NCBI GenBank assembly: GCA_020345705.1
Contig: CP070766.1
Span: forward strand, 908,070 to 936,790
Origin: Candidatus Zixiibacteriota bacterium
Lineage (GTDB): Bacteria; Zixibacteria; MSB-5A5; GN15; PGXB01
Length of the DNA stretch: 28,721 nucleotides
Direction: 5' to 3'
In this document: one piece after another, positions 1,290 through 28,721 of the stretch
How positions within the stretch are numbered: the first letter of the stretch is position 1
Layout of the letters: each line of letters opens with the position of its first letter
Notes under the pieces: model-generated
What the model saw: the letters and a program-made list of their open reading frames with translations, nothing else
What the model was told of the DNA's origin: nothing
The model's database searches: none
Made by a program: the position numbers and the translations under genes

Positions 1290-1826
1290 ATGAAAAAATA
1301 TCTTATCCTTCAAATACCGCTGCTGATTGTCCTCATGATAACCACCGGCTGCTACACGATCATAAGTCATCCGGGCGAAGAAGATGACTTCGTCGATCGT
1401 AGCGGCAGGTATGACAATTACAGCGAATACTACGGCTACACTCACTACTACTATCCGGACTACTGGAGCCATCACCCCCGATGGGGTCACTTCTGGGCCA
1501 CCCCCTGGTGGTGGGATTATTATGACTATTATGATGCGGGCTACTACGATGACACCGACTCGCCTCGACCGCCGCAGGGAGAGAGGGCGGTACCTTCTCC
1601 CGGCCGTTGGGAGGACGATGCGACCGTCAACAATCCGGGCATAATAAGAGGTGACTGGGGCCGAAACACCGGGCCTGAAACCAAACCCGGGAGCACCGGT
1701 GGAACGTCGGTCAAACCTCGCGGCAAAACCGAGGAAAAAACCGAGCAGCCCAAGGAGACTCGAGAAAAGGACAAACAGGAAGAAAGCAAGAAAACCAAAC
1801 GCGGCGGGAGGTGGCGGAAGAGATGA
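1290..1826 (+). CDS. Lipoprotein with a Tyr/Trp/Asp-rich low-complexity region and a charged disordered tail
   Basis: MKK plus hydrophobic stretch plus lipobox-like TTG-C (Cys21); GGAG upstream; its TGA overlaps the ATG of the next gene (ATGA). Confidence 0.75.
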   Translation: MKKYLILQIPLLIVLMITTGCYTIISHPGEEDDFVDRSGRYDNYSEYYGYTHYYYPDYWSHHPRWGHFWATPWWWDYYDYYDAGYYDDTDSPRPPQGERAVPSPGRWEDDATVNNPGIIRGDWGRNTGPETKPGSTGGTSVKPRGKTEEKTEQPKETREKDKQEESKKTKRGGRWRKR

Positions 1827-3094
1827 AACGAATAATAATACTGACGCTATCCATATGCATTATTACAGCACTGGGCTCCGGTTCCAAGGCCGGTTATCTC
1901 TTCGAAGTCGAGGAAATCCTGGCTGGTAACCATGCCGGATTCGGTGCCCGGCAAATGGCTATGGGCGGAGCGGGGATTATGGGCATGGACGGCACGGCGC
2001 TGTTCTATAATCCGGCCAACCTGGCCAGAATTCCCAGGATAGAATTTAACCTGGGTTTGTCCTATCAGAAATTCAAAGATGAGTCATTTACACGAGTTCT
2101 TGGTCCCGGGACAGTGCTTGATGATGGAGACCAGAAGACGAATACCCGTCTGAATACTGCCATTCTGTCCATACCGTATCCGACCTATCGCGGCTCCCTG
2201 GTCTTCGGGGTCGGCATGGTCCGACAGGCCGACTTCGACAAGGTCTCCACCCTGCTCTACGAGGAGGACGACGCAGGGACTTTAATCTCCAATCCTCAAA
2301 GAACTTTTGAATCGGGGGGATTGAATCAGTGGGGATTCGGGATGGGGATTGATCTTTCGCCGCGTCTCTCATTCGGCGTGACGGCGCTCTTGTATCGAGG
2401 CAAGCATGAGTTCAATCTGCAATCGGACATTTACGAATCGGGTCAACTGGTCGATCCCTGGTCCCAACTTCTGGAATACAGGTATATGGGTATCGGCGGC
2501 AAGCTCGGTCTGGCCATGCAGCTCTCGCGATATGTCGGTCTGGGTCTCACCGCAGAACTGCCCGTCAATCTGCATGTCGATTGGGAAGAGACATTCATCA
2601 CTGACGGCGTCATGTATGAAAGCGATGAGTATGACCTGAAAAAGCCCTTTGTTTTCTCGGCTGGTGTTCTTGCGCGATTCAATAATGTCTCATTGCTGGC
2701 TGACGCGGATTACGCTGACTGGACGCAGCTTCAATACGGCGACAACGTTATCATGGAGCTGGATAATGAGTTGTTCAAGGAATACTACCGCGAAGTCCTG
2801 GGCTACAGGATCGGCGGTGAGTACGTTCTGCCGACGGTCGGACTTTCACTCCGAGCCGGATACTTCCACGACCCGCTTCCCTATAAGAAAGAATTCTTCG
2901 ACAAGGATCGCAGGGGCTACAGTTTCGGGTTCGGAATTCTCGTCGATCAGGTCATGACGATTGACTTTGCTTACGTACGCGGAAACTATAAGACTTTTAA
3001 CGAGCTTGATTCGCAGGATTTCACTTATAAAATTGCTCTCAACAACGATGTGGCATACAGCCGGGCCTTTGTGACCGGTGCCTACAGATTTTAG
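1823..3094 (+). CDS. OmpP1/FadL/TodX-family (PorV-related) outer-membrane beta-barrel protein
   Basis: Signal peptide from ATG 1823. GFGARQMAMGGAG...DGTALFYNPANLA is the hatch motif of the FadL/PorV superfamily. Ends in YRF. Confidence 0.8.
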   Translation: MKRIIILTLSICIITALGSGSKAGYLFEVEEILAGNHAGFGARQMAMGGAGIMGMDGTALFYNPANLARIPRIEFNLGLSYQKFKDESFTRVLGPGTVLDDGDQKTNTRLNTAILSIPYPTYRGSLVFGVGMVRQADFDKVSTLLYEEDDAGTLISNPQRTFESGGLNQWGFGMGIDLSPRLSFGVTALLYRGKHEFNLQSDIYESGQLVDPWSQLLEYRYMGIGGKLGLAMQLSRYVGLGLTAELPVNLHVDWEETFITDGVMYESDEYDLKKPFVFSAGVLARFNNVSLLADADYADWTQLQYGDNVIMELDNELFKEYYREVLGYRIGGEYVLPTVGLSLRAGYFHDPLPYKKEFFDKDRRGYSFGFGILVDQVMTIDFAYVRGNYKTFNELDSQDFTYKIALNNDVAYSRAFVTGAYRF

Positions 3095-3120
3095 TCTTTA
3101 AGCGGAATATTGAAGTGATG

Positions 3121-3143
3121 AAGGCGGCCGCCGGGCCGCCTTT
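3121..3143. terminator. GC-rich hairpin between convergent genes, probable intrinsic terminator
   Basis: AAGGCGGCC-gccg-GGCCGCCTT is a perfect 9-bp stem lying between the FadL-type stop (3094) and the creatininase stop (3145). The U-tail is short. Confidence 0.6.
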
Positions 3144-3144
3144 G

Positions 3145-3885
3145 TCATATCTTTTCCCAGCGACCGAGTACCTCAATCAGGAATTCTTCAATCTTCTTGA
3201 ATACCTTCTGCTGGTACTCACGCGACCGTTCGGCGTCAAAATCCGGTAGGCCTTCGTTTTTCTTGAAGAGCAGGATTGAACCGGGAATCGGATAGACATT
3301 TGCCCCCGGCCGGTAGAAGTAAACCATATCTTCATCATACAAAGATTCGTCGACCAGCGACTCGTCGATGGCCTGCACCATGGCATTCTCGTCCAGGCCG
3401 GCATGGGCGCCTGACTGGCCATAGAACTCCTCTACCAGATCGGCACAAAGCTCCCACCAGTGGATGACGGCGATCCTGACCCGGTAGAGATAATAAAATT
3501 CGTGGGCCGCCGACTTCAGAGCCGAGTTATTGCCGCCGTGCCCGTTGAGGACGATCACTTTTTCAAAGCCGTTATCATAGAATGATTTCAGAATATCCTT
3601 GACAATCGACTCGAAATTAGGGGGCTGAATCGTGATTGAACCGGGATAACCGTACAGCGATTTGGTTATGCCGTAGTTCAGCGTGGGTGCGATGAGGGCG
3701 TTGATTCTATCGGCCAGGTATTCGGCGATTGACTCCGGTATCAGATTATCGGTTCCGATTGCCGCGGGACCGTGCGCTTCTATTGTTCCCACCGGAAAAA
3801 GAACAGTGTCTACTTTGTCGGGCACAAGGTCGCGGACGCTCTTCCAGGAAAGTCTTTGAAGCTTTCTTTCCATGACTATGCTCAT
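3145..3885 (-). CDS. Creatininase (creatinine amidohydrolase) family protein
   Basis: Motifs PVGTIEAHG, GTD, NGHGGN and HAGLDE carry the family's metal ligands. The start overlaps the upstream stop (ATGA). Confidence 0.9.
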   Translation of the reverse strand: MSIVMERKLQRLSWKSVRDLVPDKVDTVLFPVGTIEAHGPAAIGTDNLIPESIAEYLADRINALIAPTLNYGITKSLYGYPGSITIQPPNFESIVKDILKSFYDNGFEKVIVLNGHGGNNSALKSAAHEFYYLYRVRIAVIHWWELCADLVEEFYGQSGAHAGLDENAMVQAIDESLVDESLYDEDMVYFYRPGANVYPIPGSILLFKKNEGLPDFDAERSREYQQKVFKKIEEFLIEVLGRWEKI

Positions 3886-4634
3886 GTGCCCAGTCTGTTT
3901 ATAAGTCTCTCCAGGACAAGTTCCGTTTCTTTCGTGGAGATTTCGTCCCCCTCCAGACGGTACTGGTTGATATCCCGAACCAGATATTCGAGGTCTTCAT
4001 GATGTTCCACGGCGTACCACAGCTCAAGCTCGCTCCACGAGAGACCTTTTTCCCTGAAGTGGTTGGCCACCTCGGAGTAAATGTTCGGTGACCTCCAGTC
4101 AAAATTCGACATCTTGACGTGACACTCCTGTGTCATGCCGATAAGGTAATACCGCCCCTCCACGGTCGGGCCGAAAACGGCGTCGGATTTTTTCAACAGC
4201 TTCAAAGCAGTCTTGAGCATATCGGCCTTGAGAGTCGGTGTCCGGCTGCCGATGAAGAGAACGTGGTTGTACCCATCCTCGAGACACCTGCAGATGGCCG
4301 TCTCCATCTTAATCCCCCACCTCTCGGGTGGCAGGCAGGTCAACTTCAGTTCCTCTTTGAGGACCCTTGCCTTTCGTCCTTTGAGTTTTCTGCCGAGGTA
4401 GTTCATTATCGTGTTGACCGCCTTTTTGGTCTTGGGCAGGTCGGCATAGAAGAGGTGGAAGTCAACCGAACGAAGTTCGAGCACGTTCACCAGAGTATCG
4501 GCAATGAAGGCCTGGTGAAGGAAGTCGATTTCTTCCGGGCTGAGTGCTTCACTTATATTCAGCTCCGAGCCGTCCTCCATCACTTCCTGTATACAGACGG
4601 CCAGGACGGCATCATTTGCTCTTGATTTAGACAT
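3882..4634 (-). CDS. DUF2064 / TIGR04282-like (CofC-related GT-A fold) protein with degenerate motifs
   Basis: VLFIGSRTPTL, AVFGPTVEGRYYLIGM and WYAVEHHEDL align with the family motifs IGSDxP, GPAxDGGYYLIG and DVDxxEDL. ATG at 4634; TTG at 4640 is an alternative start. Confidence 0.75.
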   Translation of the reverse strand: MSKSRANDAVLAVCIQEVMEDGSELNISEALSPEEIDFLHQAFIADTLVNVLELRSVDFHLFYADLPKTKKAVNTIMNYLGRKLKGRKARVLKEELKLTCLPPERWGIKMETAICRCLEDGYNHVLFIGSRTPTLKADMLKTALKLLKKSDAVFGPTVEGRYYLIGMTQECHVKMSNFDWRSPNIYSEVANHFREKGLSWSELELWYAVEHHEDLEYLVRDINQYRLEGDEISTKETELVLERLINRLGT

Positions 4635-4674
4635 AAGCAACGGTAGTTTGTCGTTTCCTCAATAATTTTGCGCC

Positions 4675-4703
4675 AATATAAGGAAGCCGGCAGACCGCGT
4701 CAA
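4675..4703 (-). promoter_or_regulatory. sigma70-type promoter for the DUF2064-creatininase pair
   Basis: On the minus strand: TTGACG (4703-4698), 17-nt spacer, TATATT (4680-4675). Confidence 0.65.
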
Positions 4704-4738
4704 GAGACGTGCCGCATTTTTTGGCCGACTCCGGTCGT

Positions 4739-5476
4739 TTAACCGAGATTCAGTGATGGAAATGCTTCGAGAAGATAGTTGGCGATAATCTGTAATATAT
4801 TGAAGAAAATGAGTACTCCGATTAGCATCAGTAATCCGCCCGATATAATTTCGACTGCACGGAAGTGCCGTTTGATGAAACCGAAGAAACCGACCAGGAA
4901 ATTGAACAGGAAGGCGGTCAAAATAAACGGGATACCCAGACCCGCCGAATAGAACGACAGCAATATTATACCCCTGGATACTGTCTCCTGATTGGCGGCG
5001 ACGGTCAGAATGGAGCCCAGGATGGGCCCGATGCACGGGGTCCAGCCGAAGGCAAAGGCCATGCCGATGACGACCGAACCGAGGATTCCGAATTTCTTGC
5101 TGCCGGAATGAAAGCGCTTTTCATAGTTGAGAAATTTTATCCTGAAGACGCCGGCGACGTGCAGACCAAAAATGAATATCAATAGGCCGGCGACCTTGTT
5201 GAAAACCGTCAAATTCTGAAACAGCCAGCTGCCGATGAATGAAGCCGATGCACCCAGAGCAATGAAGATAGCCGAGAACCCGACCACAAAGAATATCGTA
5301 TTGACGGTGACGCGGCCCAGATGTTCGGATGCCTTTTCCCTGTTCGTCAAGTCTTCGATCGAGACGCCCGAGATGAATGAGATGTAACCCGGTATCAACG
5401 GCAATACGCAGGGCGATATGAACGATAGACCTCCGGCAAGAAAGGCACTGAAATAGCTTATACTTGTTTCAAACAT
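4739..5476 (-). CDS. ccdA: Cytochrome c biogenesis protein CcdA (DsbD transmembrane domain family)
   Basis: SPCVLPLIPGY and GWTPCIGPILG redox-Cys motifs, about six transmembrane helices; AAGGA lies 6 nt before the ATG. Confidence 0.92.
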   Translation of the reverse strand: MFETSISYFSAFLAGGLSFISPCVLPLIPGYISFISGVSIEDLTNREKASEHLGRVTVNTIFFVVGFSAIFIALGASASFIGSWLFQNLTVFNKVAGLLIFIFGLHVAGVFRIKFLNYEKRFHSGSKKFGILGSVVIGMAFAFGWTPCIGPILGSILTVAANQETVSRGIILLSFYSAGLGIPFILTAFLFNFLVGFFGFIKRHFRAVEIISGGLLMLIGVLIFFNILQIIANYLLEAFPSLNLG

Positions 5477-10398: not shown

Positions 10399-13300
10399 TC
10401 AGATATGCTCCGGCTTAAGTGAATGCATATTTTTGGCCTGATCGACAAAGGCCTCAAGCCGGGTCTCCTCACCGGTGTCCTTTAGACCCTCGTAGCTGAT
10501 ATTCAGCCAGGGAACGTCGCCGATGTCATGCGAGACTTTTCTGGAAAGAGACGTTACGATCGTCCCCGGCATGCAGTTAAAGGGCATACAATTGATGATA
10601 CCGGAAGCACCGTCGTGGGCGAATTCGACGGCTTTGCCGATCGTAAGAACAGCCTCGCCCCTGACATCGACCGACAGGTAGGGCGAAGCCAGCCTGATTG
10701 TATTTGACACGGGTGGTTCCGGGTCTATCGGGTAATGCTTCCGAAAGCTCCGTATGATCCTGAGCTCGTCACGATGCTGACAAAACTCCTGCAAGACGCC
10801 TTTTATAACATCCTTCCAGCGCTTTTCGTAGATGGAGTCAAGTTTGTATGTATAAGAAGTGTAGTTTATCCATTCGGCGAAGGTTGCCAGCTTTACTTCA
10901 AGGCCCAGCCGTTCGATCTTTGTTATCAGATGATTGTTGGAAAACCGGTTATTTCTGAGATAGATTTCGCCCACGAGCCCGATAAACGGCCGGCGCGAGG
11001 TCTCGCGGGCAATAGCGCTGAATTCGGCCGCGGCGCGCTCGGCCAATCCGGTAAAGCCACCCTCCTCAAGAATACACTCCTCGGCCTTCCTCAGATATTT
11101 GTAGTACACTCTCTCCGCCTGCCCGATCTCAAGCTCGTAAGGTCTGGTCTGCAGGAGCGCCTTTATCAGGCAGTCAACAAAAACGACTCCTTTCCAGCCC
11201 AGCCGCCGAAAGGTGTTTCCCTCCAGGCCGAAATCGGTGTAGGATGTTTTGGAGTTCGGCGAATAAATGGGCACATTCTTGTACCCCAGTTCATCGAGGA
11301 CAATTCGGTGATACTGGCTGTATTGGCCGAAGCGGCACGGCCCGTCGGCACCCGGCATGAAAAAAACAGTCCGGTCATGGTCAGCATCACCGGAGCGCAG
11401 CTTCTTTATCATGTCTCCGGTGGTAATCGTACAGGGGAAGCATTCTTTCCCTGAGGTGAATTTCTTGCCCAGCGTCAGGCTCTCCTCGTCCGGCTCATCA
11501 AGCACCTGAGCTTTGATCCCGCACTTCTCAAAGGCGGCACGAACGGGATAGGCGTGATCACACATGTTAGGAATATAGACGACCCTTTCTGCGGGAGAAG
11601 AGCCCTTGTTGCTGGGCGAGTATTCGGTAATCGGCGGCGTGTAGGTGTAAAACCGGAGTGAGTCAAGAAAGGCTTCCACCCTTGTGATCAAGCCGGCGTC
11701 GGCGGAGTGCTCATCCAGCTCAAGCTGAAGATAAGGTTTTCCACTCATGGTCCGTCTGAAAAAATGAATAATGAACGAATCCGGACCACAGCCAAACGAC
11801 GTCAGATAAATGGGATAAAGGTTAGGATGCTTGCGTATAAAGCTCGCCGCCGAAAGTATCTTGCGCCCGTAAAGCCAGTACATGGTCGAGAGATCCTCGG
11901 TGTCGAGGTCCAGCGGCAGGAAATCAATCGGGATTGCTTTTAGTCCCATTTTCTTCAGTCGAGACGGTATTTCCAGCGAGAGTCTGCGGTCGAAACCGGT
12001 GTATGGTCGGCTGACAAGGACCATGCATTTCTCATCCCGGCCGATCGAATCAAGAATCTGCCGGCCGGTATCGAGAAGCTGTTTCCGAAAAAGATCATAG
12101 GCCCGCATGCCGTTTCTGATAGCCTTCTTGAGCTCTCTTTCGGATAAACCCATCACTTTAAGTAACGGCTTTAATTGATTGAGCATTTTAGAGATATCGC
12201 GCAGGATTCTGATGGGTGAGCCGATGAATTTGACCCCGCGCCGGGAAAAATCAAATTTGGTCCGAACCGTGTTGGAGATTGTCTGGACGTAGGGACAGAT
12301 ATAAGTGCCGTCATCGCGGGATTCATCATCGGTGAATTTTATGATGCCCGGCAGGAAAATATAGTCGACCTGTTTTTTGATCAGATTCTCGACGTGCCCG
12401 AAGGCCATCTTGACCGGGAAGCAAGTTTCCGCGGCAAACATCTCCAGGGAGTTTTCCACGATTTCATGATTGGACAGATCCGAATTGATCACCTCGTAGC
12501 CGAGCGTCTCAAAGAATGCTTTCCAATAGGGATAATACTCATAAAAATGCAGGACCCTGGGAATTCCGATCCTTCCGCGCGGAACGTCTCTGGCGGGACT
12601 GACATCAATATAGCGCCGCAACAGCAGTCTTTGACGAAGATTGAGGTAGTCAGGAACGCGGGTTTTGTCCTCTTTTCGTTTGACGTCGTATTTCTCGCAA
12701 CGGCTCCCATAGTAAAGAGGCGCCTCGCCTTCGATTTCGACCTTGTGTATCTCGCACATGTTGGAGCAGTCTTCACAGGTGAACGCACTCAACTCGTACT
12801 TCTTTCTGGAGAGGTCGAATCCCTTGAAGCCCGTGCCCTTTCCGTCGTCGACCTCCATTGCCAGAATAGCCGCGCCGATGGCTCCGGTGACGTCATGATG
12901 CGGCGGGACCGTGACTTTCTTACCGGTCAGTTTTTCAAATGCCGCCACAACGCCCTTGTTCCACGCGACTCCTCCCTGGAAAAAGATATTGTCGCCGACT
13001 CTTCGGTCGCCGACGACTTTGGTCAGGTAGTTGGAAGCAATGGAATAGGCCAGCCCGGCGATGAGGTCATCGGTATCGGCGCCGGCGCGCTGGTGGCTGA
13101 TCAGGTCGGATTCCATGAAGACGGTGCACCTTTCGCCGCACCCGACCGGGCATCTGGCTTTCAACGCCCGGTCGCCAAACTCCCGCTCGATGTTTATCTC
13201 AAGCTTTTCGGCCTGTTCCTGGAGAAACGACCCGGTTCCGGCGGCGCAGGCCTTATTCATTTCGAAATCGATGACGGTTTTGTCGTCAAGGGAGATGTAC

Positions 13301-14583
13301 TTCGAATCCTGCCCGCCGATCTCAAAAATCGTGTCCACCGTGGGGTCGATATTGATGGCCGCCGTCGCTTGGGCAGTAATCTCATTTTTTATGATATCGG
13401 CTCCCACAAAGTCGCCGGTCAAATACCGTCCCGAACCGGTCGTGGCGACGCCCCTTACCCGAACCCTGTCGCCGACTTCGGCGCCGATCTCGGCCAATCC
13501 CCGGCGGACCGCCTCAATCGGGCGGCCTTCCGTCATGAGGTAGCGGCGGGCGACGACGTTCTTTTCCCTGTCAATCAGGACCAGGTTGGTTGACAGTGAG
13601 CCGACGTCAATCCCGAGATAGACCTCAAGATTTTCGACTCTCCCCGCGTATCGCTTCGAGGTCAGCTTATAATACTTCGAGTTCGGATAATCATAGGATA
13701 GCCGGTCGCGGCCGCTTGCGGGCACCTCTCGGTATTTCAAATAAGCTTCGATTTTGCCGGGATCTATCTGCACCGGTTCAATGTCATGTTTGGTGCCGGC
13801 CAGCATGGCCGAGCCGATAGCACCCATGACGTTAAAACGTTCAGGTATTACAAGCTGGTCGTTTTCCAGTTCCAGGATATCGACAAAAGCTCTCACAACT
13901 CCCGGATTGGCCGCAACTCCGCCCTCGAACGCAATCGGCGGGTCGAATTTCTTTCCCCGTGCTATGGCGCCCTTGAAGTTGCGTGCCACCGCATAGCACA
14001 GTCCGGCAACAATATCGTAATCGGGTGTGGCTATCTGCTGCAGATGAATCATATCTGATTTGGCGAAGACCGAGCATCGGCCGGCGATCCGCGGCGGATT
14101 TTTCGATTTCAGCGCCAGACGGCCGAATTCCTCCTCGATAGAGATTTTGAGGCGGCCGGCCTGCTGGTCAAGGAATGAGCCGGTTCCGGCCGCGCAAAGA
14201 TTGTTCATGCTGAAATCAAGGACAGCCTTTTTGTCGGGATCAATCTGGATAAACTTGGAATCCTCCCCCCCCATTTCTATTATTGTTCGAATCTGCGGCA
14301 GCAATTTGAAATTGGCCGTGCTGATCGCATTGATCTCGCCGAGGGGCTCCCCGCCCAGAATTTTCACGCCCGTCCGGCTGCCGATTCCGGTGAATGCGAG
14401 CTTGACCGGCTGTTTAATGAATGGAGCGAAATCCGTCTGAAGCAGCTGCATCAGCGTTTGGTACGGCCGGCCGTGAAAACGGCAATAAGCCGTCTTGACA
14501 ATCCTGCCGTCGGCATCAAGCACAGCTATTTTGACCGAAAGCGACCCGATATCGATTCCGATTGAGAGATTTTCAAAGTCCAT
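10399..14583 (-). CDS. Fused 2-hydroxyacyl-CoA dehydratase activase-related protein (two BcrAD/BadFG ATPase domains, DUF2229 and a dehydratase-like domain)
   Basis: Two copies of GIDxGS / IxxGGxDSK / CAAGTGSFL / CxVF (ASKHA Fe-S ATPase), a CEDCSNMC linker, then ETCFPVK, FGCGPD, ECFPC, GPCRFGQY and PFNCMPG. Start placed at MDFENLSIGID (14583). Confidence 0.9.
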   Translation of the reverse strand: MDFENLSIGIDIGSLSVKIAVLDADGRIVKTAYCRFHGRPYQTLMQLLQTDFAPFIKQPVKLAFTGIGSRTGVKILGGEPLGEINAISTANFKLLPQIRTIIEMGGEDSKFIQIDPDKKAVLDFSMNNLCAAGTGSFLDQQAGRLKISIEEEFGRLALKSKNPPRIAGRCSVFAKSDMIHLQQIATPDYDIVAGLCYAVARNFKGAIARGKKFDPPIAFEGGVAANPGVVRAFVDILELENDQLVIPERFNVMGAIGSAMLAGTKHDIEPVQIDPGKIEAYLKYREVPASGRDRLSYDYPNSKYYKLTSKRYAGRVENLEVYLGIDVGSLSTNLVLIDREKNVVARRYLMTEGRPIEAVRRGLAEIGAEVGDRVRVRGVATTGSGRYLTGDFVGADIIKNEITAQATAAINIDPTVDTIFEIGGQDSKYISLDDKTVIDFEMNKACAAGTGSFLQEQAEKLEINIEREFGDRALKARCPVGCGERCTVFMESDLISHQRAGADTDDLIAGLAYSIASNYLTKVVGDRRVGDNIFFQGGVAWNKGVVAAFEKLTGKKVTVPPHHDVTGAIGAAILAMEVDDGKGTGFKGFDLSRKKYELSAFTCEDCSNMCEIHKVEIEGEAPLYYGSRCEKYDVKRKEDKTRVPDYLNLRQRLLLRRYIDVSPARDVPRGRIGIPRVLHFYEYYPYWKAFFETLGYEVINSDLSNHEIVENSLEMFAAETCFPVKMAFGHVENLIKKQVDYIFLPGIIKFTDDESRDDGTYICPYVQTISNTVRTKFDFSRRGVKFIGSPIRILRDISKMLNQLKPLLKVMGLSERELKKAIRNGMRAYDLFRKQLLDTGRQILDSIGRDEKCMVLVSRPYTGFDRRLSLEIPSRLKKMGLKAIPIDFLPLDLDTEDLSTMYWLYGRKILSAASFIRKHPNLYPIYLTSFGCGPDSFIIHFFRRTMSGKPYLQLELDEHSADAGLITRVEAFLDSLRFYTYTPPITEYSPSNKGSSPAERVVYIPNMCDHAYPVRAAFEKCGIKAQVLDEPDEESLTLGKKFTSGKECFPCTITTGDMIKKLRSGDADHDRTVFFMPGADGPCRFGQYSQYHRIVLDELGYKNVPIYSPNSKTSYTDFGLEGNTFRRLGWKGVVFVDCLIKALLQTRPYELEIGQAERVYYKYLRKAEECILEEGGFTGLAERAAAEFSAIARETSRRPFIGLVGEIYLRNNRFSNNHLITKIERLGLEVKLATFAEWINYTSYTYKLDSIYEKRWKDVIKGVLQEFCQHRDELRIIRSFRKHYPIDPEPPVSNTIRLASPYLSVDVRGEAVLTIGKAVEFAHDGASGIINCMPFNCMPGTIVTSLSRKVSHDIGDVPWLNISYEGLKDTGEETRLEAFVDQAKNMHSLKPEHI

Positions 14584-14669
14584 TTCAAAATATTCCACTG
14601 TTATCAGGTTGCTGAAATTGATAAGAATTTTTACAGTCAATTGCAACGACAAATTAAAGGAAATTTATT

Positions 14670-22671: not shown

Positions 22672-25600
22672 TTATTTCAAAATTGTCATTTTCCTGGTGG
22701 CCGTGAATCCTCCGGCATCGACCTTATAAAGATAAATCCCTGAAGCCACGCTCTGGCCGCCATTATCCCGACCATTCCATACCACTGTCACGATACCCGG
22801 GTCAGCATCGCCTTCAAACTGTCTGACGACCCGGCCGTTTATGTTGAAGATAGTTATCTGCCAGTGACAGGCAACCGGCAGAGACAGATCAATGGAGGTC
22901 ATGGGATTAAAGGGGTTGGGGTAGTTCTGGGATATCATAAACTGATCCGGGACCAGTTTCGAGTTTAAATCGGTCTCGACAACTTCGCCGTGGAAGCTCG
23001 CAAACGATGCTTCAACCAGAGAGATGTTTCCGGACCCGGTGTAGCCGATGCTGAGCAGATCGCCGACCCCTCCGGCGATAGCCGCGCCCGGATCAAAGCT
23101 GTAGATCAGGACTCTGAGTTCGCTATCGCGTGCCGAGTATGCAATGTGCATGTTCTCAGCCATTTCACCCGGCGTCGGTATTTCGGGGATGATACCGTCA
23201 TACCGGAATATAAGCAGTCCGGCCCCAAGCGGACAATCGGCATCGGCGTGAAGCGTAAGCGAATTGCCGTCGTCATGAACCGCCAGGTCAAGCTTCAGCT
23301 TATCCGGGGAGACTTTCGGAATCCGATCGGCATCACCGACGACCACGCGGACCAGATAAACCAGATCGGCGATAGTCAGTGTATATCCGTCGGCGTTGAC
23401 ATCGGTTGCCGCAATCTGTCCGTCAACGTTCTCCGTGAAGGCCGACAGACCGTAAATGAAATAATTTGTAAAAACAACCGCGTCGGCGATTTCGTAGGCA
23501 ACACCGTTCAGGTTGACGTCGCCGCGGGCGTCAATGGAATCGGGGTGCTTGACACAGATGCCGCCGTTATGGAAGTAAACGCAGCGAATCGGCGAAATCT
23601 CATCGCCGACAAGACAGCTGTCCCCGGCGCCGAAACCAATAGGTCGATTATCTTCAGGGAATAGTATATCATCAGCCTCGTCCCAGATCAGGTCGCCGGA
23701 GGCATTGTATATTCTCGATTCTATGTACTGCTCGGTCCCGCTGGGACTGGCGAAAGAGTTGTCGCCGCAGTCGATCCAGAAGAAGTAGATCGGCAGGAAC
23801 AGACCGCCGAGGTTCTGGTTGTTGGCGACCAGCATTTGCATTGTGGCCAGCACGCCCTGAGGATCCAGCTGATCTTCCGGCGGGTGAAACGGACCGTTGT
23901 TGATGTCGGCGATACCGACAATCCTGACCAGCATGGAGGGGCATCCCGGGCAATCTTCCTGCAGCAGCCGATGCGTGAAATATTCCCACCCGGCAATGGT
24001 GTCGCTCTTGAGGGCATACTGGAATGACATGACCGATGCATCATAAGCAACCAGGAGATCAAAGCCGCCGATCGGGTCAAGAGTTTGCACGACCAGATTG
24101 ACCGGAACACTCGAACCGACCACAACGCAGGAGTCAGTTTCAATCGCCAGGTCAACGCATACCGAACAGATCGGCGACGGATACACGGTTACGGAAAATA
24201 AACCGGTGTCGGCGCTACAGCCGTCGGTGGCCTCAAAGCAGAATTCGTAGGTCGTGTCGGTTATCTCCGGCGTGAAGCAGACCGTGCCACTGTCGTCACG
24301 ATAAGGGGTGAATTCACCCGGTCCGCAGACCTGGGTGATCGTCACGGGGTCTCCCTCGGCATCAACGGCAAAGATGCCGTCAAGGCATATCTGACCGGTG
24401 TCATCCTCGCACCATGTTATCAGGGTGTCGGCGGGAACGGTGAGTTCCGGGGTCATGTTGCCGATAACACTTATCGTCAGCTCGCAGGTATCAGCTCCGC
24501 AGGCGGAAGTCGCGACGACCCTAGTCTCATAGTCTCCGGATTCGGAAATCGGAATACACACCATGCCGCCGCTGTAGGATCCTTCGGGAAGCACCGTTAC
24601 CTCCACGCCGGACCCGATGACGTCGACATGGAAGCAGATTTCCGAAACCTCTGTCAGGCAGACGAGGGTGTCGAAGTCTCCCGGGCATACCAGCTCGGGA
24701 ACCTGGTTTATAACTACGTTGACCTGAACCACACACGTGTCAACGCTGCACGGAGTTTCCGCAATGATGGTTATATGATATTGGCCCGACGTATCGGCAT
24801 AGAAGGTCAGCTTCTTCGTGGCGAAGTCGTAAACGCCTATCGGCGTAATTGTCAGTGTTGCCGAAGGCGGACTGATCGGCACAAGTGCTGAAACCGGGCC
24901 GGGTGAACAGAGCGAAGCACTTATCGGCAGATCGGGACACATGATCTCGACATACTCATCAAAGGCGACGTTGACCGTGATCGTACACGTGTCGGCGCCG
25001 CAGACTTCAGAGGCAATCACCGTTATTTCGTAACTGCCGGCGGTATCGGCATAGAAACAGATCTGTCCGTCGGCATAAATGCCGAATGACACACTGACCT
25101 CGACGCTCGACGGGGTAACCGTCAACGGGAGACAGATCTGGCCGGGGTCGCACAGTCTCTCGGCGAAGGGCTCGCTCGGACAGTCGATCACAGCCACATC
25201 GCCAGTGGTTACGGTGATGCAGACCTCATCGCTTCCCGAAGCTCCGCATTCATCATAGGCAGTAACAGTCAGACAGTATGTTCCCGGAACGGTCGGAGTG
25301 AAACATAGCATTCCTGTCTGAATATCATAAAATCCGGTCGGTGAAACGGTGACCGAGTCAATTTCATTATCGGAGTCGAGCACCGCAGCCAGACGACAGA
25401 TTTCCTGGAAATCACACTGGAAATATGTGGTATCATTGCCGGCATCTACCGTGGGCGGCGCATTAAATCCAACCGTGACGTTGAATTCGCAGGTATCGGC
25501 CCCGCAATCAGTCTCAGCAATTATGGTGAGAGAATATATGCCGGCGGTATCTGCGGCAAAGCATAGACTGCCGTTTTCATAGTTGCCGATGGGCAGAACG

Positions 25601-28600
25601 GAAACCTGGGAATATTCCGGAGTGACCTCAACCGGGACGCAGGCCGTTCCGGCATCGCACAGGAAGACTGATGTATCCGGAGGACAGGCAATCTGCGGCG
25701 GCTGCCCGATCTCAACTACAATTTCGATTTCGCACGTGTCCGTACCACACAGGGCATCGGCGACGACCTGAATTATATAAATACCGGAAGTGTCAGCCAT
25801 GAAGCAGAGATAACCGTCTTCGTAGGTACCGTAGGAAGTTGACACGACAGCGGATGCCGGGGTTATATCCAGCAGATAACACAGCGTTTCCGGCTGGCAT
25901 ATAGTGAAACTCAATTGCCCGAGAGGACAGTCAATTGCGGCCGGCTCTTCAATGGTCAATGTCACAATTGAGGTATCAGCTGCGCTTTCGCCACATTCGT
26001 CAACGGCCGTCGTGATTATGGAGTATGTCCCGGCGGCTTCAGGAAGGAAACAGACGGTACCTGTAACGGGATCATATATTCCAAGATTAGCTGCAACGCT
26101 CTGCACGTTGTCTTCCTGATCAATGACATCGACATTGACACAGATTTCTTCAAGATCAAATGAGCACTGGATGACCGATGTGTCGCTGGCTGATACGACT
26201 ATCGGACATGTGTTCAAGACTATATCTATGACAAGCGTGTCGAATGTCCTGGCGTGACAGCAGTCGACGGCGGTAATGATGATCTCGTAGCTGCCGGGCT
26301 CCTGAGCGTCGATGCACACAAAGCCGTCCTGGTATTCCCCGCCGACCACGTAGACTGAATCCAGATCATCGTCTTGATCGACAATAGAAACCGGGACGCA
26401 GATTGGGGCGCGCTGCTGGCAGGTTATGATGGTCGTATCCGGGCCGGCGTCAACATCGGGAGGATGGTTTAACCGGACATTAACCTGCACGGTATCCTGG
26501 TCAATCATTCCGCATGAATCGGCTGCCGTTATGACTAATACATACATACCTGCATCGGTGGGAAGAAAGCAAACGGTACCATTATCAGGATCGTATGTGC
26601 CGGACGGCAAAACTGATACTGCGAGCACATTGTTGTCCGGATCGGGAATATCAACCGGGAAACAGACCTCCGAAGGCTCGCACAGGAAAGTGTCAATGAC
26701 AGCCTCCGCGACGATCTCCGGAGGACTGTTTAGGGTGACGGTAACCACCGTCGAGTCCAGATCCGCGGCGCCGCAGCCGTCAAGAGCCCGGATCTTAATC
26801 ACATATTCTCCTGACGTTGCCGGTGTGAAACAGACACGGTTCGTGATCGGATTGTATGTTGCCCCGCCAGAGGCGGAAACACTGACGACATTATTATCGG
26901 CGTCGCTGATGCCGACCGGGATACAGATTTCGCCGATCTCGCAAACCGTCATATTCATATCCGGGGGCATGATCACAAGTGGCTTGGAATTCATCGTAAC
27001 ATCAACACTGAACGTGCAGCTATCGGCCCCACACTCATTCTCCACGACGATCTTCAAGTTCTTTTCAACGGAACAGTTGGTGTAGAAGCAGATGGTGCCC
27101 TGTTGAGAGTCGTACCAAGCCGACTGCGGGAAAATAGTGACGTCAGCACCTATAGGAATACCGCCCACCGCGAAACACAGGGTATCCGGATCACAGATGA
27201 AGACCGATGTATCACCCGGGCAGATGAGACTGAACGGCTCACCGGCTATAACTGTGACAACGGTAGTATCCTGGTCCGTGGCTTCGCAGGCGTCGATGGC
27301 CGTGACGATGACGACGTAGGTTCCTTCCTCAGTCGGTGTGAAACAAATCTGGTCGTTTTCGTAGGTGCCGATATTGGTAGACACCGATACGACGTTGTCA
27401 TCGATATCGGTGACGCTCACCGGCAGACAGATCGGTCCCCAGAGACAGGTTATAACCGAAGTATCCGGTGCAGACACGACCTGTGGCGGGCTGTTGAGGA
27501 CAACTTCCATGACCACGAATGCGGAATCTGCCTCAAGGCATTCATCCGTTGCTGTGACTGTCAGAACGTAAGTCCCGGATTCGGTCGGCGTAAAGCAGAC
27601 TGAGCTGGTAGACTCATTATAATAACCCTGGGGAGATACATTTATATCAATGATATTGTTGTCAATATCGGAGATGCTGACAGGGACACATATCTCTTCA
27701 GGCTCGCAAAGGAATATCGGTCCGTTAATTTTATTCACCGGCGTTGTCACGGTCGGAGGCGAATTCATAGTGACGCTAATCGTAAAGGAGCAACTGTCCG
27801 CATGGCATCCGCTCTCCGCGATCACTGCTATCTCTTTGTCTTCAGTGGAGTCGAGAGTGCAGCATATGGTGTGATTAAGATCATCGTACCATGCTGATTC
27901 CGGCGTGACTATCACTGATGCGCCGTCCGGAATACCCTGAATGGGGAAGCAGATGGTGTCGGGTTCACAGAGGAACAGTGAGGTATCACCGGGACAGGTT
28001 ATCTCGAACGGTTCCTCAATAGTCACATTCAGGATAACCTGACAGGTATCGGACCCGCACTCGGCGTCCGCGATAATATCGATTGGATAGGTTCCCGAGG
28101 TGTCGGCAGGAAAGCACAGTCGCCCGTCGGCGTAGGAGCCAAACGAGGCCGATACGACAACATCGGGCGGCGTTATGCTTATCGGCAGACAAATCTGTCC
28201 CGGCTGGCACAGAAACGTATCGATTGGTGCCGTCGGGCAGTCTATCCAGGGGCCTTGACGAAGACGGACGTCGAAAGAGACGTAACATGTGTCGGCGCCG
28301 CATTCGGTTTCGGCGATGACTTGTATGACATACATGCCCGACGTGTCGGCGTAGAAACACAACTGGCCCTCGGCGTAAGTGCCGTAGGACGTCGTCACGG
28401 TCGCACCGGCCGGTGATATCTCAAGCGGGAAACAGACCTGTTCCGGCTCGCAGAGATAAATATTGGCCGGATCAATGGGGCAGGTTATGCTCGCCGGTTC
28501 CTCGATCGTTATATCTATCGATATGTTGCACGTGTCCGAACCGCAGTTGCTGGCGGCGACTACTTCAATCGTATATGTTCCGCTCGTATCAGCCATAAAG

Positions 28601-28721
28601 CACAGCGTACCGTCGGCGTATGTTCCGAACGATGTCGAGACGGCCGCATCGGCAGGTGTTATCTCCAGCGGTAGACAGAATTCCTGTGGACTGCACAGCA
28701 GAGTATCCAGCGGTCCTTCCG
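22672..28721 (-). CDS. Giant secreted Cys-rich repeat protein with cohesin-like, dockerin-like and FlgD-Ig / T9SS type A-like C-terminal domains; 5' end lies outside the window
   Basis: The frame stays open from 28596 to the window edge (EGPLDTLLCSPQEFC...), giving more than 2010 aa. Order: 18 repeats; a cohesin-like segment (GGFDLLVAYD, GWEYF); a duplicated EF-hand-like dockerin (GDVNLNG...IADAV / DVNADG...IADLV); SQNYPNPFNP...RKMTILK C-terminal domain. Confidence 0.88.
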   Translation of the reverse strand, partial: EGPLDTLLCSPQEFCLPLEITPADAAVSTSFGTYADGTLCFMADTSGTYTIEVVAASNCGSDTCNISIDITIEEPASITCPIDPANIYLCEPEQVCFPLEISPAGATVTTSYGTYAEGQLCFYADTSGMYVIQVIAETECGADTCYVSFDVRLRQGPWIDCPTAPIDTFLCQPGQICLPISITPPDVVVSASFGSYADGRLCFPADTSGTYPIDIIADAECGSDTCQVILNVTIEEPFEITCPGDTSLFLCEPDTICFPIQGIPDGASVIVTPESAWYDDLNHTICCTLDSTEDKEIAVIAESGCHADSCSFTISVTMNSPPTVTTPVNKINGPIFLCEPEEICVPVSISDIDNNIIDINVSPQGYYNESTSSVCFTPTESGTYVLTVTATDECLEADSAFVVMEVVLNSPPQVVSAPDTSVITCLWGPICLPVSVTDIDDNVVSVSTNIGTYENDQICFTPTEEGTYVVIVTAIDACEATDQDTTVVTVIAGEPFSLICPGDTSVFICDPDTLCFAVGGIPIGADVTIFPQSAWYDSQQGTICFYTNCSVEKNLKIVVENECGADSCTFSVDVTMNSKPLVIMPPDMNMTVCEIGEICIPVGISDADNNVVSVSASGGATYNPITNRVCFTPATSGEYVIKIRALDGCGAADLDSTVVTVTLNSPPEIVAEAVIDTFLCEPSEVCFPVDIPDPDNNVLAVSVLPSGTYDPDNGTVCFLPTDAGMYVLVITAADSCGMIDQDTVQVNVRLNHPPDVDAGPDTTIITCQQRAPICVPVSIVDQDDDLDSVYVVGGEYQDGFVCIDAQEPGSYEIIITAVDCCHARTFDTLVIDIVLNTCPIVVSASDTSVIQCSFDLEEICVNVDVIDQEDNVQSVAANLGIYDPVTGTVCFLPEAAGTYSIITTAVDECGESAADTSIVTLTIEEPAAIDCPLGQLSFTICQPETLCYLLDITPASAVVSTSYGTYEDGYLCFMADTSGIYIIQVVADALCGTDTCEIEIVVEIGQPPQIACPPDTSVFLCDAGTACVPVEVTPEYSQVSVLPIGNYENGSLCFAADTAGIYSLTIIAETDCGADTCEFNVTVGFNAPPTVDAGNDTTYFQCDFQEICRLAAVLDSDNEIDSVTVSPTGFYDIQTGMLCFTPTVPGTYCLTVTAYDECGASGSDEVCITVTTGDVAVIDCPSEPFAERLCDPGQICLPLTVTPSSVEVSVSFGIYADGQICFYADTAGSYEITVIASEVCGADTCTITVNVAFDEYVEIMCPDLPISASLCSPGPVSALVPISPPSATLTITPIGVYDFATKKLTFYADTSGQYHITIIAETPCSVDTCVVQVNVVINQVPELVCPGDFDTLVCLTEVSEICFHVDVIGSGVEVTVLPEGSYSGGMVCIPISESGDYETRVVATSACGADTCELTISVIGNMTPELTVPADTLITWCEDDTGQICLDGIFAVDAEGDPVTITQVCGPGEFTPYRDDSGTVCFTPEITDTTYEFCFEATDGCSADTGLFSVTVYPSPICSVCVDLAIETDSCVVVGSSVPVNLVVQTLDPIGGFDLLVAYDASVMSFQYALKSDTIAGWEYFTHRLLQEDCPGCPSMLVRIVGIADINNGPFHPPEDQLDPQGVLATMQMLVANNQNLGGLFLPIYFFWIDCGDNSFASPSGTEQYIESRIYNASGDLIWDEADDILFPEDNRPIGFGAGDSCLVGDEISPIRCVYFHNGGICVKHPDSIDARGDVNLNGVAYEIADAVVFTNYFIYGLSAFTENVDGQIAATDVNADGYTLTIADLVYLVRVVVGDADRIPKVSPDKLKLDLAVHDDGNSLTLHADADCPLGAGLLIFRYDGIIPEIPTPGEMAENMHIAYSARDSELRVLIYSFDPGAAIAGGVGDLLSIGYTGSGNISLVEASFASFHGEVVETDLNSKLVPDQFMISQNYPNPFNPMTSIDLSLPVACHWQITIFNINGRVVRQFEGDADPGIVTVVWNGRDNGGQSVASGIYLYKVDAGGFTATRKMTILK
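24180..28721 (-). repeat. Tandem array of 18 diverged 80-92 aa Cys-rich Ig/cadherin-like protein repeats (first one truncated by the window edge)
   Basis: Recurrent consensus xCP...LC.P..IC.P...G.Y...CF.(ADTS/P...)G.Y.I...A...CG.D(TC). The repeats are visible at protein level; the DNA is diverged. Confidence 0.88.

Follow-up and report, generated by a model that had tools for sequence, protein, structure and literature searches.

What a giant protein of an uncultured bacterium does with a cohesin-like and a dockerin-like module in one chain is the question raised by one edge of the DNA stretch analysed here (the window), 28,721 nucleotides from a Candidatus Zixiibacteriota bacterium (assembly GCA_020345705.1, contig CP070766.1, positions 908,070 to 936,790 of the forward strand). 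The window is one complete contig of a metagenome-assembled genome (MAG) of 2.6 Mb, which is 84% complete and consists of 416 contigs joined by 100-N spacers. An open reading frame (ORF) at positions 22672..28719 on the minus strand, open at its 5' end where the contig ends, encodes a visible product of 2015 residues, designated P0001 (residue n corresponds to window positions 28720-3n to 28722-3n). P0001 is composed of at least 18 Cys-rich immunoglobulin (Ig)-like repeats followed by a 421-residue cassette, in which a cohesin-like domain (CohA), a dockerin (Doc) and a further beta domain (X, or CohB) succeed one another, and by a type IX secretion system (T9SS) C-terminal sorting domain (CTD). 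Every module named in a preliminary description of the locus was found roughly where it had been placed, on the minus strand. The four-part Coh-Doc-X-CTD arrangement is one fixed unit found across the phylum, which that description had overlooked.

Conservation and distribution of the cassette

Relatives of residues 1515-1935 were collected in an exhaustive HMMER search, which revealed 1678 proteins at E ≤ 0.001, 755 of them reaching E ≤ 1e-30; 63 relatives of this region formed alignment A1. In most of the 755 cluster representatives (E < 1e-30), the cassette match left about 80 aa at the C-terminal end uncovered, and 45 of 49 full-length relatives contained a T9SS sorting domain. The N-terminal parts of these 49 proteins consisted mostly of Ig, PKD, cadherin-like or VWA domains, with a few papain-like peptidases. 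The cassette was detected in 146 of the 151 genomes sampled across the phylum, with 1-14 matches in each, usually 5-14. The named relatives came from Candidatus Zixiibacteriota or "FCB group" MAGs and were annotated with nothing more than a FlgD-Ig or a T9SS sorting domain. Three relatives (L022, L035 and L076; CAYVMO010000002.1, CAZILL010000001.1 and CAYQCE010000007.1) derived from Third Party Annotation (TPA) MAGs labelled 'uncultured Ignavibacteriaceae/Ignavibacteriales/Ignavibacteria'. Their match coordinates were identical to those in the phylum-sample genomes G076, G013 and G042, of which G076 belongs to the family of the MAG studied here, so these labels are probably misplaced.

Within the MAG, cassette-type Doc and CohA were confined to cassette proteins. 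The CohA-Doc-X-CTD architecture was observed in three of them, P0001 included, and a truncated Doc-X-CTD in one. A further protein, P0002 (G000:C1:213784-218751, minus strand, 1644 aa), was characterized by the order (CohA-Doc-X)x3-Doc-X-canonical dockerin and lacked a sorting domain; cassette modules of another paralogue are encoded at G000 79931-82654. P0002 passed both the cohesin and the dockerin cut-off of Pfam, and its Dockerin_1 match (35.7 bits) corresponded to the C-terminal canonical dockerin, not to the cassette type. P0002 resembles an adaptor that could join cassette proteins to canonical cohesins. A further multi-cassette relative, P0012, combined six stretches of the cassette with a sorting domain. 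In a different Zixibacteria MAG, the protein L100 (G155:C890, ORF 1573-5019, plus strand) combined four tandem CohA domains, one cassette Doc and a C-terminal canonical dockerin, the layout of a classical scaffoldin made of cassette parts.

Partial matches had initially pointed to proteins with Doc and X only. When these proteins were fetched, a shorter and more divergent cohesin was found in them, so such matches are no evidence of a form lacking the cohesin.

CohA, a divergent cohesin

Apart from Ig-type repeats and the sorting domain, Pfam and NCBIfam searches over the full-length P0001 reported nothing. When residues 1500-1940 were compared as a single sequence with solved structures, the only matches were NfeD protease fragments, which, at E of about 0.08, were taken as chance matches and rejected as relatives.

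An AlphaFold2 model of residues 1515-1935, built from the 63-sequence alignment, had a predicted local distance difference test (pLDDT) value of 89.4 and a predicted template modelling score (pTM) of 0.61. In this model, CohA (23533..24174, minus strand, residues 1516-1729) formed a nine-strand jelly roll. The comparison with solved structures in VIA-align gave as the best match 5nrk_A (Z 15.4, root-mean-square deviation (rmsd) 2.1 A over 140/143 residues), and type I cohesins were aligned over model residues 4-210. All 50 of the 50 matches listed were cohesins; their Z values ranged between 11.2 and 15.4, and they fell within model residues 2-215. Foldseek of the whole cassette model likewise returned mainly cohesins, with a probability of 1.00.

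The sequence signal was much fainter than the fold. PF00963 was the sole Pfam family matched by the isolated CohA segment (12.8 bits, E 0.14), below the gathering cut-off of 24.1. In a member-by-member Pfam scan of the 63 relatives, PF00963 was detected at E ≤ 0.01 in 25 (best 5.6e-6) and PF00404 in 3, these two being the only families seen. The multi-cassette paralogues passed the Pfam cohesin cut-off (36.6 bits for P0002 and 61 bits for P0012), and the A1 profile searched against the Protein Data Bank (PDB) sequences gave 12 matches, all weak and all to cohesins. As judged from the predicted structure, CohA is a true but divergent cohesin.

CohA contained an insertion of about 60 residues (1647-1710; 23590..23781, minus strand) between strands 8 and 9. 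From secondary structure assigned to the model with DSSP, the aligned ranges and the invariant columns of the alignment, two invariant cysteines (Cys1651, Cys1702) were located in it, together with two motifs, DCGDN and WDE..D...PE..R. The preliminary description had placed a cohesin-like domain at about 23740-24156, with a Cys-containing linker behind it. The fold proposed there was confirmed in the model, whereas the extent was too short, and the supposed linker proved to be part of CohA itself, namely the insertion together with strand 9. A CPGC loop had also been noted in the domain; it is present as the pair Cys1590-Pro-Gly-Cys1593 (23941..23952, minus strand) in the loop between strands 5 and 6. 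Among the 63 relatives this Cys pair was nearly invariant, whereas CPGC as such was no conserved motif: the spacing was CxxxC in 50, CxxC in 7 and C(4)C in 2, and the pair was absent from 4. A thioredoxin-like redox motif was considered for the CPGC and rejected, since the spacing varies across the family and the loop is thus no CxxC redox motif.

The cassette dockerin

The dockerin spanned positions 23335..23523 (minus strand, residues 1733-1795) and consisted of two repeats of a Ca2+ loop and a helix, in good agreement with the two-EF-hand module expected at about 23329-23526. A separate model of residues 1733-1795 had a pLDDT of 92.4 and contained three helices. The first 26 Foldseek matches of this model were all dockerins, with template modelling (TM) scores of 0.64-0.78, rmsd of 2.3-3.0 A and 22-32% identity. 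VIA gave Z up to 10.2 (rmsd 2.2 A, 73/74 residues); 28 chains were found at Z ≥ 2, all of them above 5, and all 20 of the 20 entries listed were dockerins. The preliminary description had made its proposal dependent on cohesin and dockerin folds, and the predicted folds matched both (Z 15.4 for CohA and 10.2 for the dockerin).

The unusual feature of this dockerin was the length of its loops. Both loop 1 (D1734-D1746, 23482-23520) and loop 2 (D1773-D1785, 23365-23403), encoded on the minus strand, had 13 residues and showed the ligand pattern D-x-N-x-N/D-G, with the invariant closing Asp at position 13, not 12. The residues invariant across the alignment were G, D, N, D in one repeat and D, D, G, D in the other. 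The duplicated Ca2+ loop and helix (F-hand) by which dockerins are recognized was thus present. When aligned to the Clostridium thermocellum dockerin 3ul4_B, the best PDB match of the HMMER family profile (E 0.016), the cassette dockerin showed a one-residue insertion in each loop. It scored 13.8 bits (E 0.067) against PF00404, below the gathering cut-off of 22.9. The canonical dockerins of the same MAG differ from it in their 12-residue loops and in the helix motif INYLYK, and the similarity between the two types in hhalign (P 0.0012, probability 20%) was too weak to be used alone. The model indicates that the cassette dockerin is a true but unusual dockerin, and the domain identities in the cassette can be regarded as very probable.

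The X domain, the sorting domain and T9SS genes

The further beta domain that had been noticed behind the dockerin was found at residues 1808-1919 (22963..23298, minus strand) and was predicted to fold as a small beta-sandwich of seven to eight strands. X was the least conserved part of the cassette, with a mean top-residue frequency of 0.41. Scanning its members one by one against Pfam yielded only noise, and hhalign detected no similarity between X and CohA (probability 0.7%). The X profile (A5) had a single match in the PDB, the Archaeoglobus fulgidus cohesin 2xdh (E 2.1e-4, 24.4 bits), which covered most of both sequences. The best Foldseek match of the whole cassette model was the cohesin dyad 3l8q, at E 4.7e-12 versus 3.7e-7 for single cohesins. 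On the basis of these two matches, X is probably a second, compact cohesin-like module, an assignment made with moderate confidence.

The sorting domain occupied positions 22672..22923 (minus strand, residues 1933-2015 and the stop codon). Its residues 1933-2013 matched TIGR04183 with 46.8 bits (cut-off 23) and PF18962 with 33.3 bits (cut-off 27), and PF13860 was matched with 32.1 bits. The terminal NYPNPFNP...ILK region (22672-22954) had therefore been rightly ascribed to the T9SS type on the strength of the TIGR04183 match. Of the profiles with which the preliminary description was to be examined, TIGR04183 scored above its cut-off and PF13860 matched, while PF00963 and PF00404 remained below theirs.

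The same description had proposed a search for T9SS genes. It was positive for PorU (NF033707, 668.7 bits, cut-off 420) and for SprA (SprA_N 97.6 bits, in an ORF of 1988 aa), and a PorV-like gene lay directly downstream of porU, its score of 156 bits being below the cut-off of 250. The porU and PorV-like genes were located at G000:C1:1098871-1104913. A profile built from the cassette family's own CTDs revealed 56 sorting domains in the MAG. The search was negative for the motor components: TIGR03525, TIGR03517 and PF12081, the models of GldK and GldM, gave no match in the 84%-complete MAG in a search run without a positive control, and PF12081 (GldM_1st) gave none in 31 genomes of the order, also without a positive control. 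A T9SS motor may be lacking or may have diverged too far.

The Ig-like repeat stalk and the missing N-terminus

Upstream of the cassette, P0001 consisted of Ig-like repeats (24178..28716, minus strand, residues 2 to about 1514-1522), a tandem array of at least 18 Cys-rich units, each about 83 aa long. Eighteen units were delimited by an iterated hidden Markov model (HMM) at E 1e-17 to 1e-35; in Pfam they are labelled only as PKD, Y_Y_Y or K319L-like. The 18 repeats could be split into types by their Cys pattern. In agreement with the preliminary description, no catalytic domain was detected with Pfam and NCBIfam in P0001, nor in its orthologue P0003 (2900 aa). Three full-length orthologues contained only Ig-type domains and the sorting domain, without catalytic modules, and no carbohydrate-binding module (CBM) or glycoside hydrolase was found in P0001 and these three proteins.

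The BLASTP alignment of P0003 to P0001 (50% identity) began at residue 879 of P0003, so about 880 residues are absent from P0001, and the full-length protein would be about 2,900 aa long. Retrieval of the upstream sequence, which had been expected to supply the N-terminus, failed: the reading frame continues solely into a 100-N spacer, and the N-terminus of P0001 is therefore unrecoverable.

Canonical dockerins and cohesins of the genome

A census of dockerin and cohesin proteins in the MAG, likewise proposed at the outset, revealed, in addition to the cassette proteins and a set of cohesin-plus-CTD proteins, 84 canonical dockerins in 82 ORFs. These had 12-residue loops and the motif CGD.NGDG.INILDV..IINYLYK. 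In 8 of the 82 ORFs that were sampled, the dockerin formed the very C-terminal end of M1, C10 or S8 peptidases, beta-propeller, Laminin_G_3 or PKD proteins, and no glycoside hydrolase was found among these 8 (M1, C10 and S8 peptidase, propeller, lectin-like and PKD modules). Pfam cohesin matches numbered only 8 in the whole MAG; they were weak, and two of them were in cassette proteins. The genome thus contains a separate, much larger canonical dockerin system, which the preliminary description had missed.

In four proteins of 442-791 aa, a Pfam cohesin and a T9SS sorting domain were found together: L009 (39.3 bits; G000:C1:842878-844203), L012 (19280-21652), L013 (1178671-1180941) and L014 (21959-24313). 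Two of them are encoded by adjacent genes, and all are candidate surface sockets for canonical dockerins. In L010 (G000:C1:1997466-1999727, minus strand), the order Peptidase_S8-PKD-cohesin-canonical dockerin was observed, an enzyme with both socket and plug like Amy4 of Ruminococcus bromii.

Proposed function and alternative explanations

In solved complexes, the dockerin is bound by the cohesin sheet of strands 8-3-6-5. The same sheet was the conserved one in CohA, with a mean top-residue frequency of 0.60-0.75 for strands 3, 5, 6 and 8 and of 0.37-0.46 for strands 1, 2, 4 and 7. The dockerin was the most conserved module of the cassette (0.76-0.80), including residues on helices 1 and 3. 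The ratio of the two modules departed from 1:1 in L100 (4 CohA to 1 Doc) and in P0002 (3 CohA to 4 Doc). Because of the conservation of the CohA sheet and of the dockerin and because of the varying module ratios, docking in trans is favoured over an obligatory 1:1 internal clasp.

The following course of events is proposed. The protein would be exported across the outer membrane via SprA with PorV, and PorU would cleave off the sorting domain and fix the protein on the surface. X, Doc and CohA would then be proximal to the membrane, with the Ig-repeat rod directed outward. The conserved 8-3-6-5 face of CohA would bind the cassette-type dockerin of another cassette molecule in trans, and the cassette proteins and multi-cassette scaffoldins of one genome would thereby be joined as a non-cellulosomal surface network. 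Our preferred reading is an assembly-and-anchor cassette that lies at the cell-proximal end of a giant, non-enzymatic protein of the cell surface and docks in trans, and for this statement as a whole we regard the chances of being right and wrong as about equal. The structural part of the preliminary description, a cohesin and a dockerin ahead of a T9SS CTD on a non-catalytic stalk, is borne out by the predicted folds, the TIGR04183 match and the T9SS genes detected; its functional part, head-to-tail polymerisation or the docking of other dockerin proteins, is a plausible proposal.

A more far-reaching version can be put forward only tentatively and seems to us rather doubtful. In it, the bases of the giant Ig-rods would be cross-linked by a private pair of CohA and the 13-residue-loop dockerin, together with multi-cassette scaffoldins, into a phylum-wide, T9SS-coupled lattice on the outer membrane, and a second, canonical pair would hang dozens of peptidases and binding proteins on the same surface. 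Such a two-tier system of plugs and sockets in a Gram-negative lineage would be unrelated to cellulose degradation.

Several points weigh against docking in trans. GldK and GldM were undetected in the MAG and GldM_1st in the sample of the order, in searches in which no control genome gave a true positive. Both CohA and the dockerin of P0001 lay below the Pfam cut-offs (12.8 and 13.8 bits), and the pTM of 0.61, set against the pLDDT of 89.4, leaves the arrangement of the domains in the model undefined. The short and conserved linker between CohA and Doc could equally fit a fixed intramolecular arrangement. The conservation of one sheet could result from folding or from packing on the insertion and not from a partner, and the partner of CohA might instead be the 84 canonical dockerins of the genome. 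The prediction of a complex between CohA (A3) and Doc (A2) gave a best score of 0.21, with the mark at 0.32; it was run without controls and counts neither way.

The possible binding of canonical dockerins by CohA leads to an enzyme-recruiting platform, in which CohA, X or both would bind the canonical dockerins of some 80 other proteins and the cassette Doc would have another partner. In the manner of an anchoring scaffoldin, the giant protein would present enzymes at its base. The cargo is at hand, as the 84 canonical dockerins in 82 ORFs are carried by peptidases, propellers and Laminin_G_3 proteins, and sockets appear scarce, because only 8 weak Pfam cohesin matches were found in the MAG, two of them in cassette proteins. 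X is as variable as a specificity module might be, and a scaffoldin-like protein with a T9SS CTD has been proposed in Cloacimonadota (PMC8542988). However, the separate cohesin-plus-CTD proteins (L009 with 39.3 bits, L012-L014) fit canonical cohesins better and are more obvious sockets. CohA and the cassette dockerin are moreover co-conserved, always in the same set of proteins, and the scaffoldins with CohA arrays carry a canonical dockerin themselves and would then bind themselves. We consider recruitment unlikely.

An intramolecular clasp, with the dockerin bound in cis to its own CohA (or X) as a rigid, Ca2+-stabilised pedestal and with no assembly between molecules, is quite unlikely in our judgement. 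It would account for the fixed order of the modules, for their 1:1:1 representation in most proteins and for the short CohA-Doc linker (about 9 residues, conserved, top-residue frequency 0.70), and the local confidence of the model over the junction was high (pLDDT blocks of 96, 75 and 91). Yet the departures from 1:1 in L100 and P0002 speak against it, and the pTM of 0.61 is evidence against one body with confident packing. Judging from cohesin topology, a dockerin tethered by 9 residues to the end of strand 9 would also be unlikely to get as far as the middle of the 8-3-6-5 sheet.

That the two folds are structural relics, stable spacers in a surface adhesin that bind nothing, would suit the sub-cut-off Pfam scores of P0001, the atypical 13-residue Ca2+ loops and the existence of partner-less cohesin-like folds (e.g., the modules of C. 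perfringens glycosidases, which were among the structural matches of CohA), but is improbable, since in a pure spacer neither the dockerin as the most conserved module nor one CohA sheet conserved far above the other would be expected, and the modules are shuffled and multiplied as interaction modules are.

A divergent cohesin-dockerin pair fixed in one cassette with a T9SS anchor is near-universal in the sampled part of this uncultured phylum. Should the modules bind in the proposed way, a network of plugs and sockets would organise the outer surface of Zixibacteria, which would explain how the numerous giant adhesin-like proteins and the dockerin-tagged peptidases of these bacteria are retained on the cell. 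Protein engineering would also gain new orthogonal Ca2+-dependent connector pairs, marked by 13-residue loops and by a cohesin rich in disulfides. For well over a thousand proteins, annotation would become better with family models for CohA, Doc and X.

Other genes in the window

The neighbours of the giant ORF, among them SMC, FtsY, RlmH and UPF0047, are housekeeping genes convergent with it and give no hint on its function. At positions 10399-14652 (minus strand), a fusion protein of 1417 aa is encoded, in which two BcrAD_BadFG ATPase domains, DUF2229 and a trace of HGD-D were recognized. It is of the CoA-enzyme activase type, adjoins a DUF885 protein and is unrelated to the cassette.

Comparison with known systems

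The best-known cohesin-dockerin pairs are those of Gram-positive cellulosomes, although non-cellulosomal modules are also known, and a cohesin and a dockerin in one chain are not unusual in themselves, as they occur in scaffoldins such as CipA. A literature search found no paper combining Zixibacteria with dockerin, and Zixibacteria were mentioned in none of the matches listed in a wider search. The fixed Coh-Doc-X-CTD cassette, the dockerin with 13-residue loops and the cohesin with a Cys-rich insertion were not found in the literature searched.

The clostridial and ruminococcal scaffoldins (C. thermocellum CipA, A. cellulolyticus ScaA/ScaB, R. flavefaciens ScaA/ScaB) likewise combine cohesins and an X-dockerin on a non-catalytic chain. 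Their cohesins (5nrk, 4uyp, 2vn5) were the best structural matches of CohA, with Z of about 15, and the dockerins 5m2o_B and 4fl4_G matched the cassette dockerin, with its three helices and two loops, at Z of about 10. As in scaffoldins, the cassette dockerin has a beta module as its immediate partner in the chain, and relatives with multiple cohesins exist. Unlike in scaffoldins, the beta module follows the dockerin in the cassette instead of preceding it, the host is a Gram-negative bacterium, and a T9SS sorting domain serves as the anchor in place of an S-layer homology (SLH) domain or a sortase. The cassette protein also differs in having no CBM and no carbohydrate-active cargo among the proteins seen, in the approximately 60-residue Cys-rich insertion of CohA and in its 13-residue Ca2+ loops. 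In the usual form, furthermore, one fixed Coh-Doc-X-CTD unit stands at the foot of a rod of Ig repeats.

A non-cellulosomal counterpart is the A. fulgidus cohesin 2xdh, which matched both the X profile (E 2.1e-4) and CohA (Z 13.0). It is archaeal and has no T9SS, and its likeness to X is weak, consisting of one profile match together with the fold match to a cohesin dyad.

For Ca. Stygibacter (Cloacimonadota), a protein resembling a scaffoldin and bearing tandem cohesins, CBM2/CBM3 and a T9SS CTD has been proposed in silico (PMC8542988). As in the MAG studied here, the host belongs to an FCB candidate phylum, the cohesins stand ahead of a T9SS CTD, and dockerins are carried by peptidases and other enzymes. 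Unlike the protein analysed here, it has no dockerin in the same cassette, and the Coh-Doc-X-CTD unit and the dockerin with 13-residue loops were not described there.

The mechanism proposed for the cassette has a parallel in Amy4 of the R. bromii amylosome, in which the cohesin binds the dockerin of its own protein and multimers are formed (PMC4611034). Both proteins carry a cohesin and a dockerin in one polypeptide, and binding of this self-type is what is suggested for the cassette. Amy4, however, is an enzyme (GH13), its host is a Gram-positive bacterium of the gut that has no T9SS, and the binding demonstrated in it is, in the case of the Zixibacteria cassette, proposed for a non-enzymatic protein of the cell surface.

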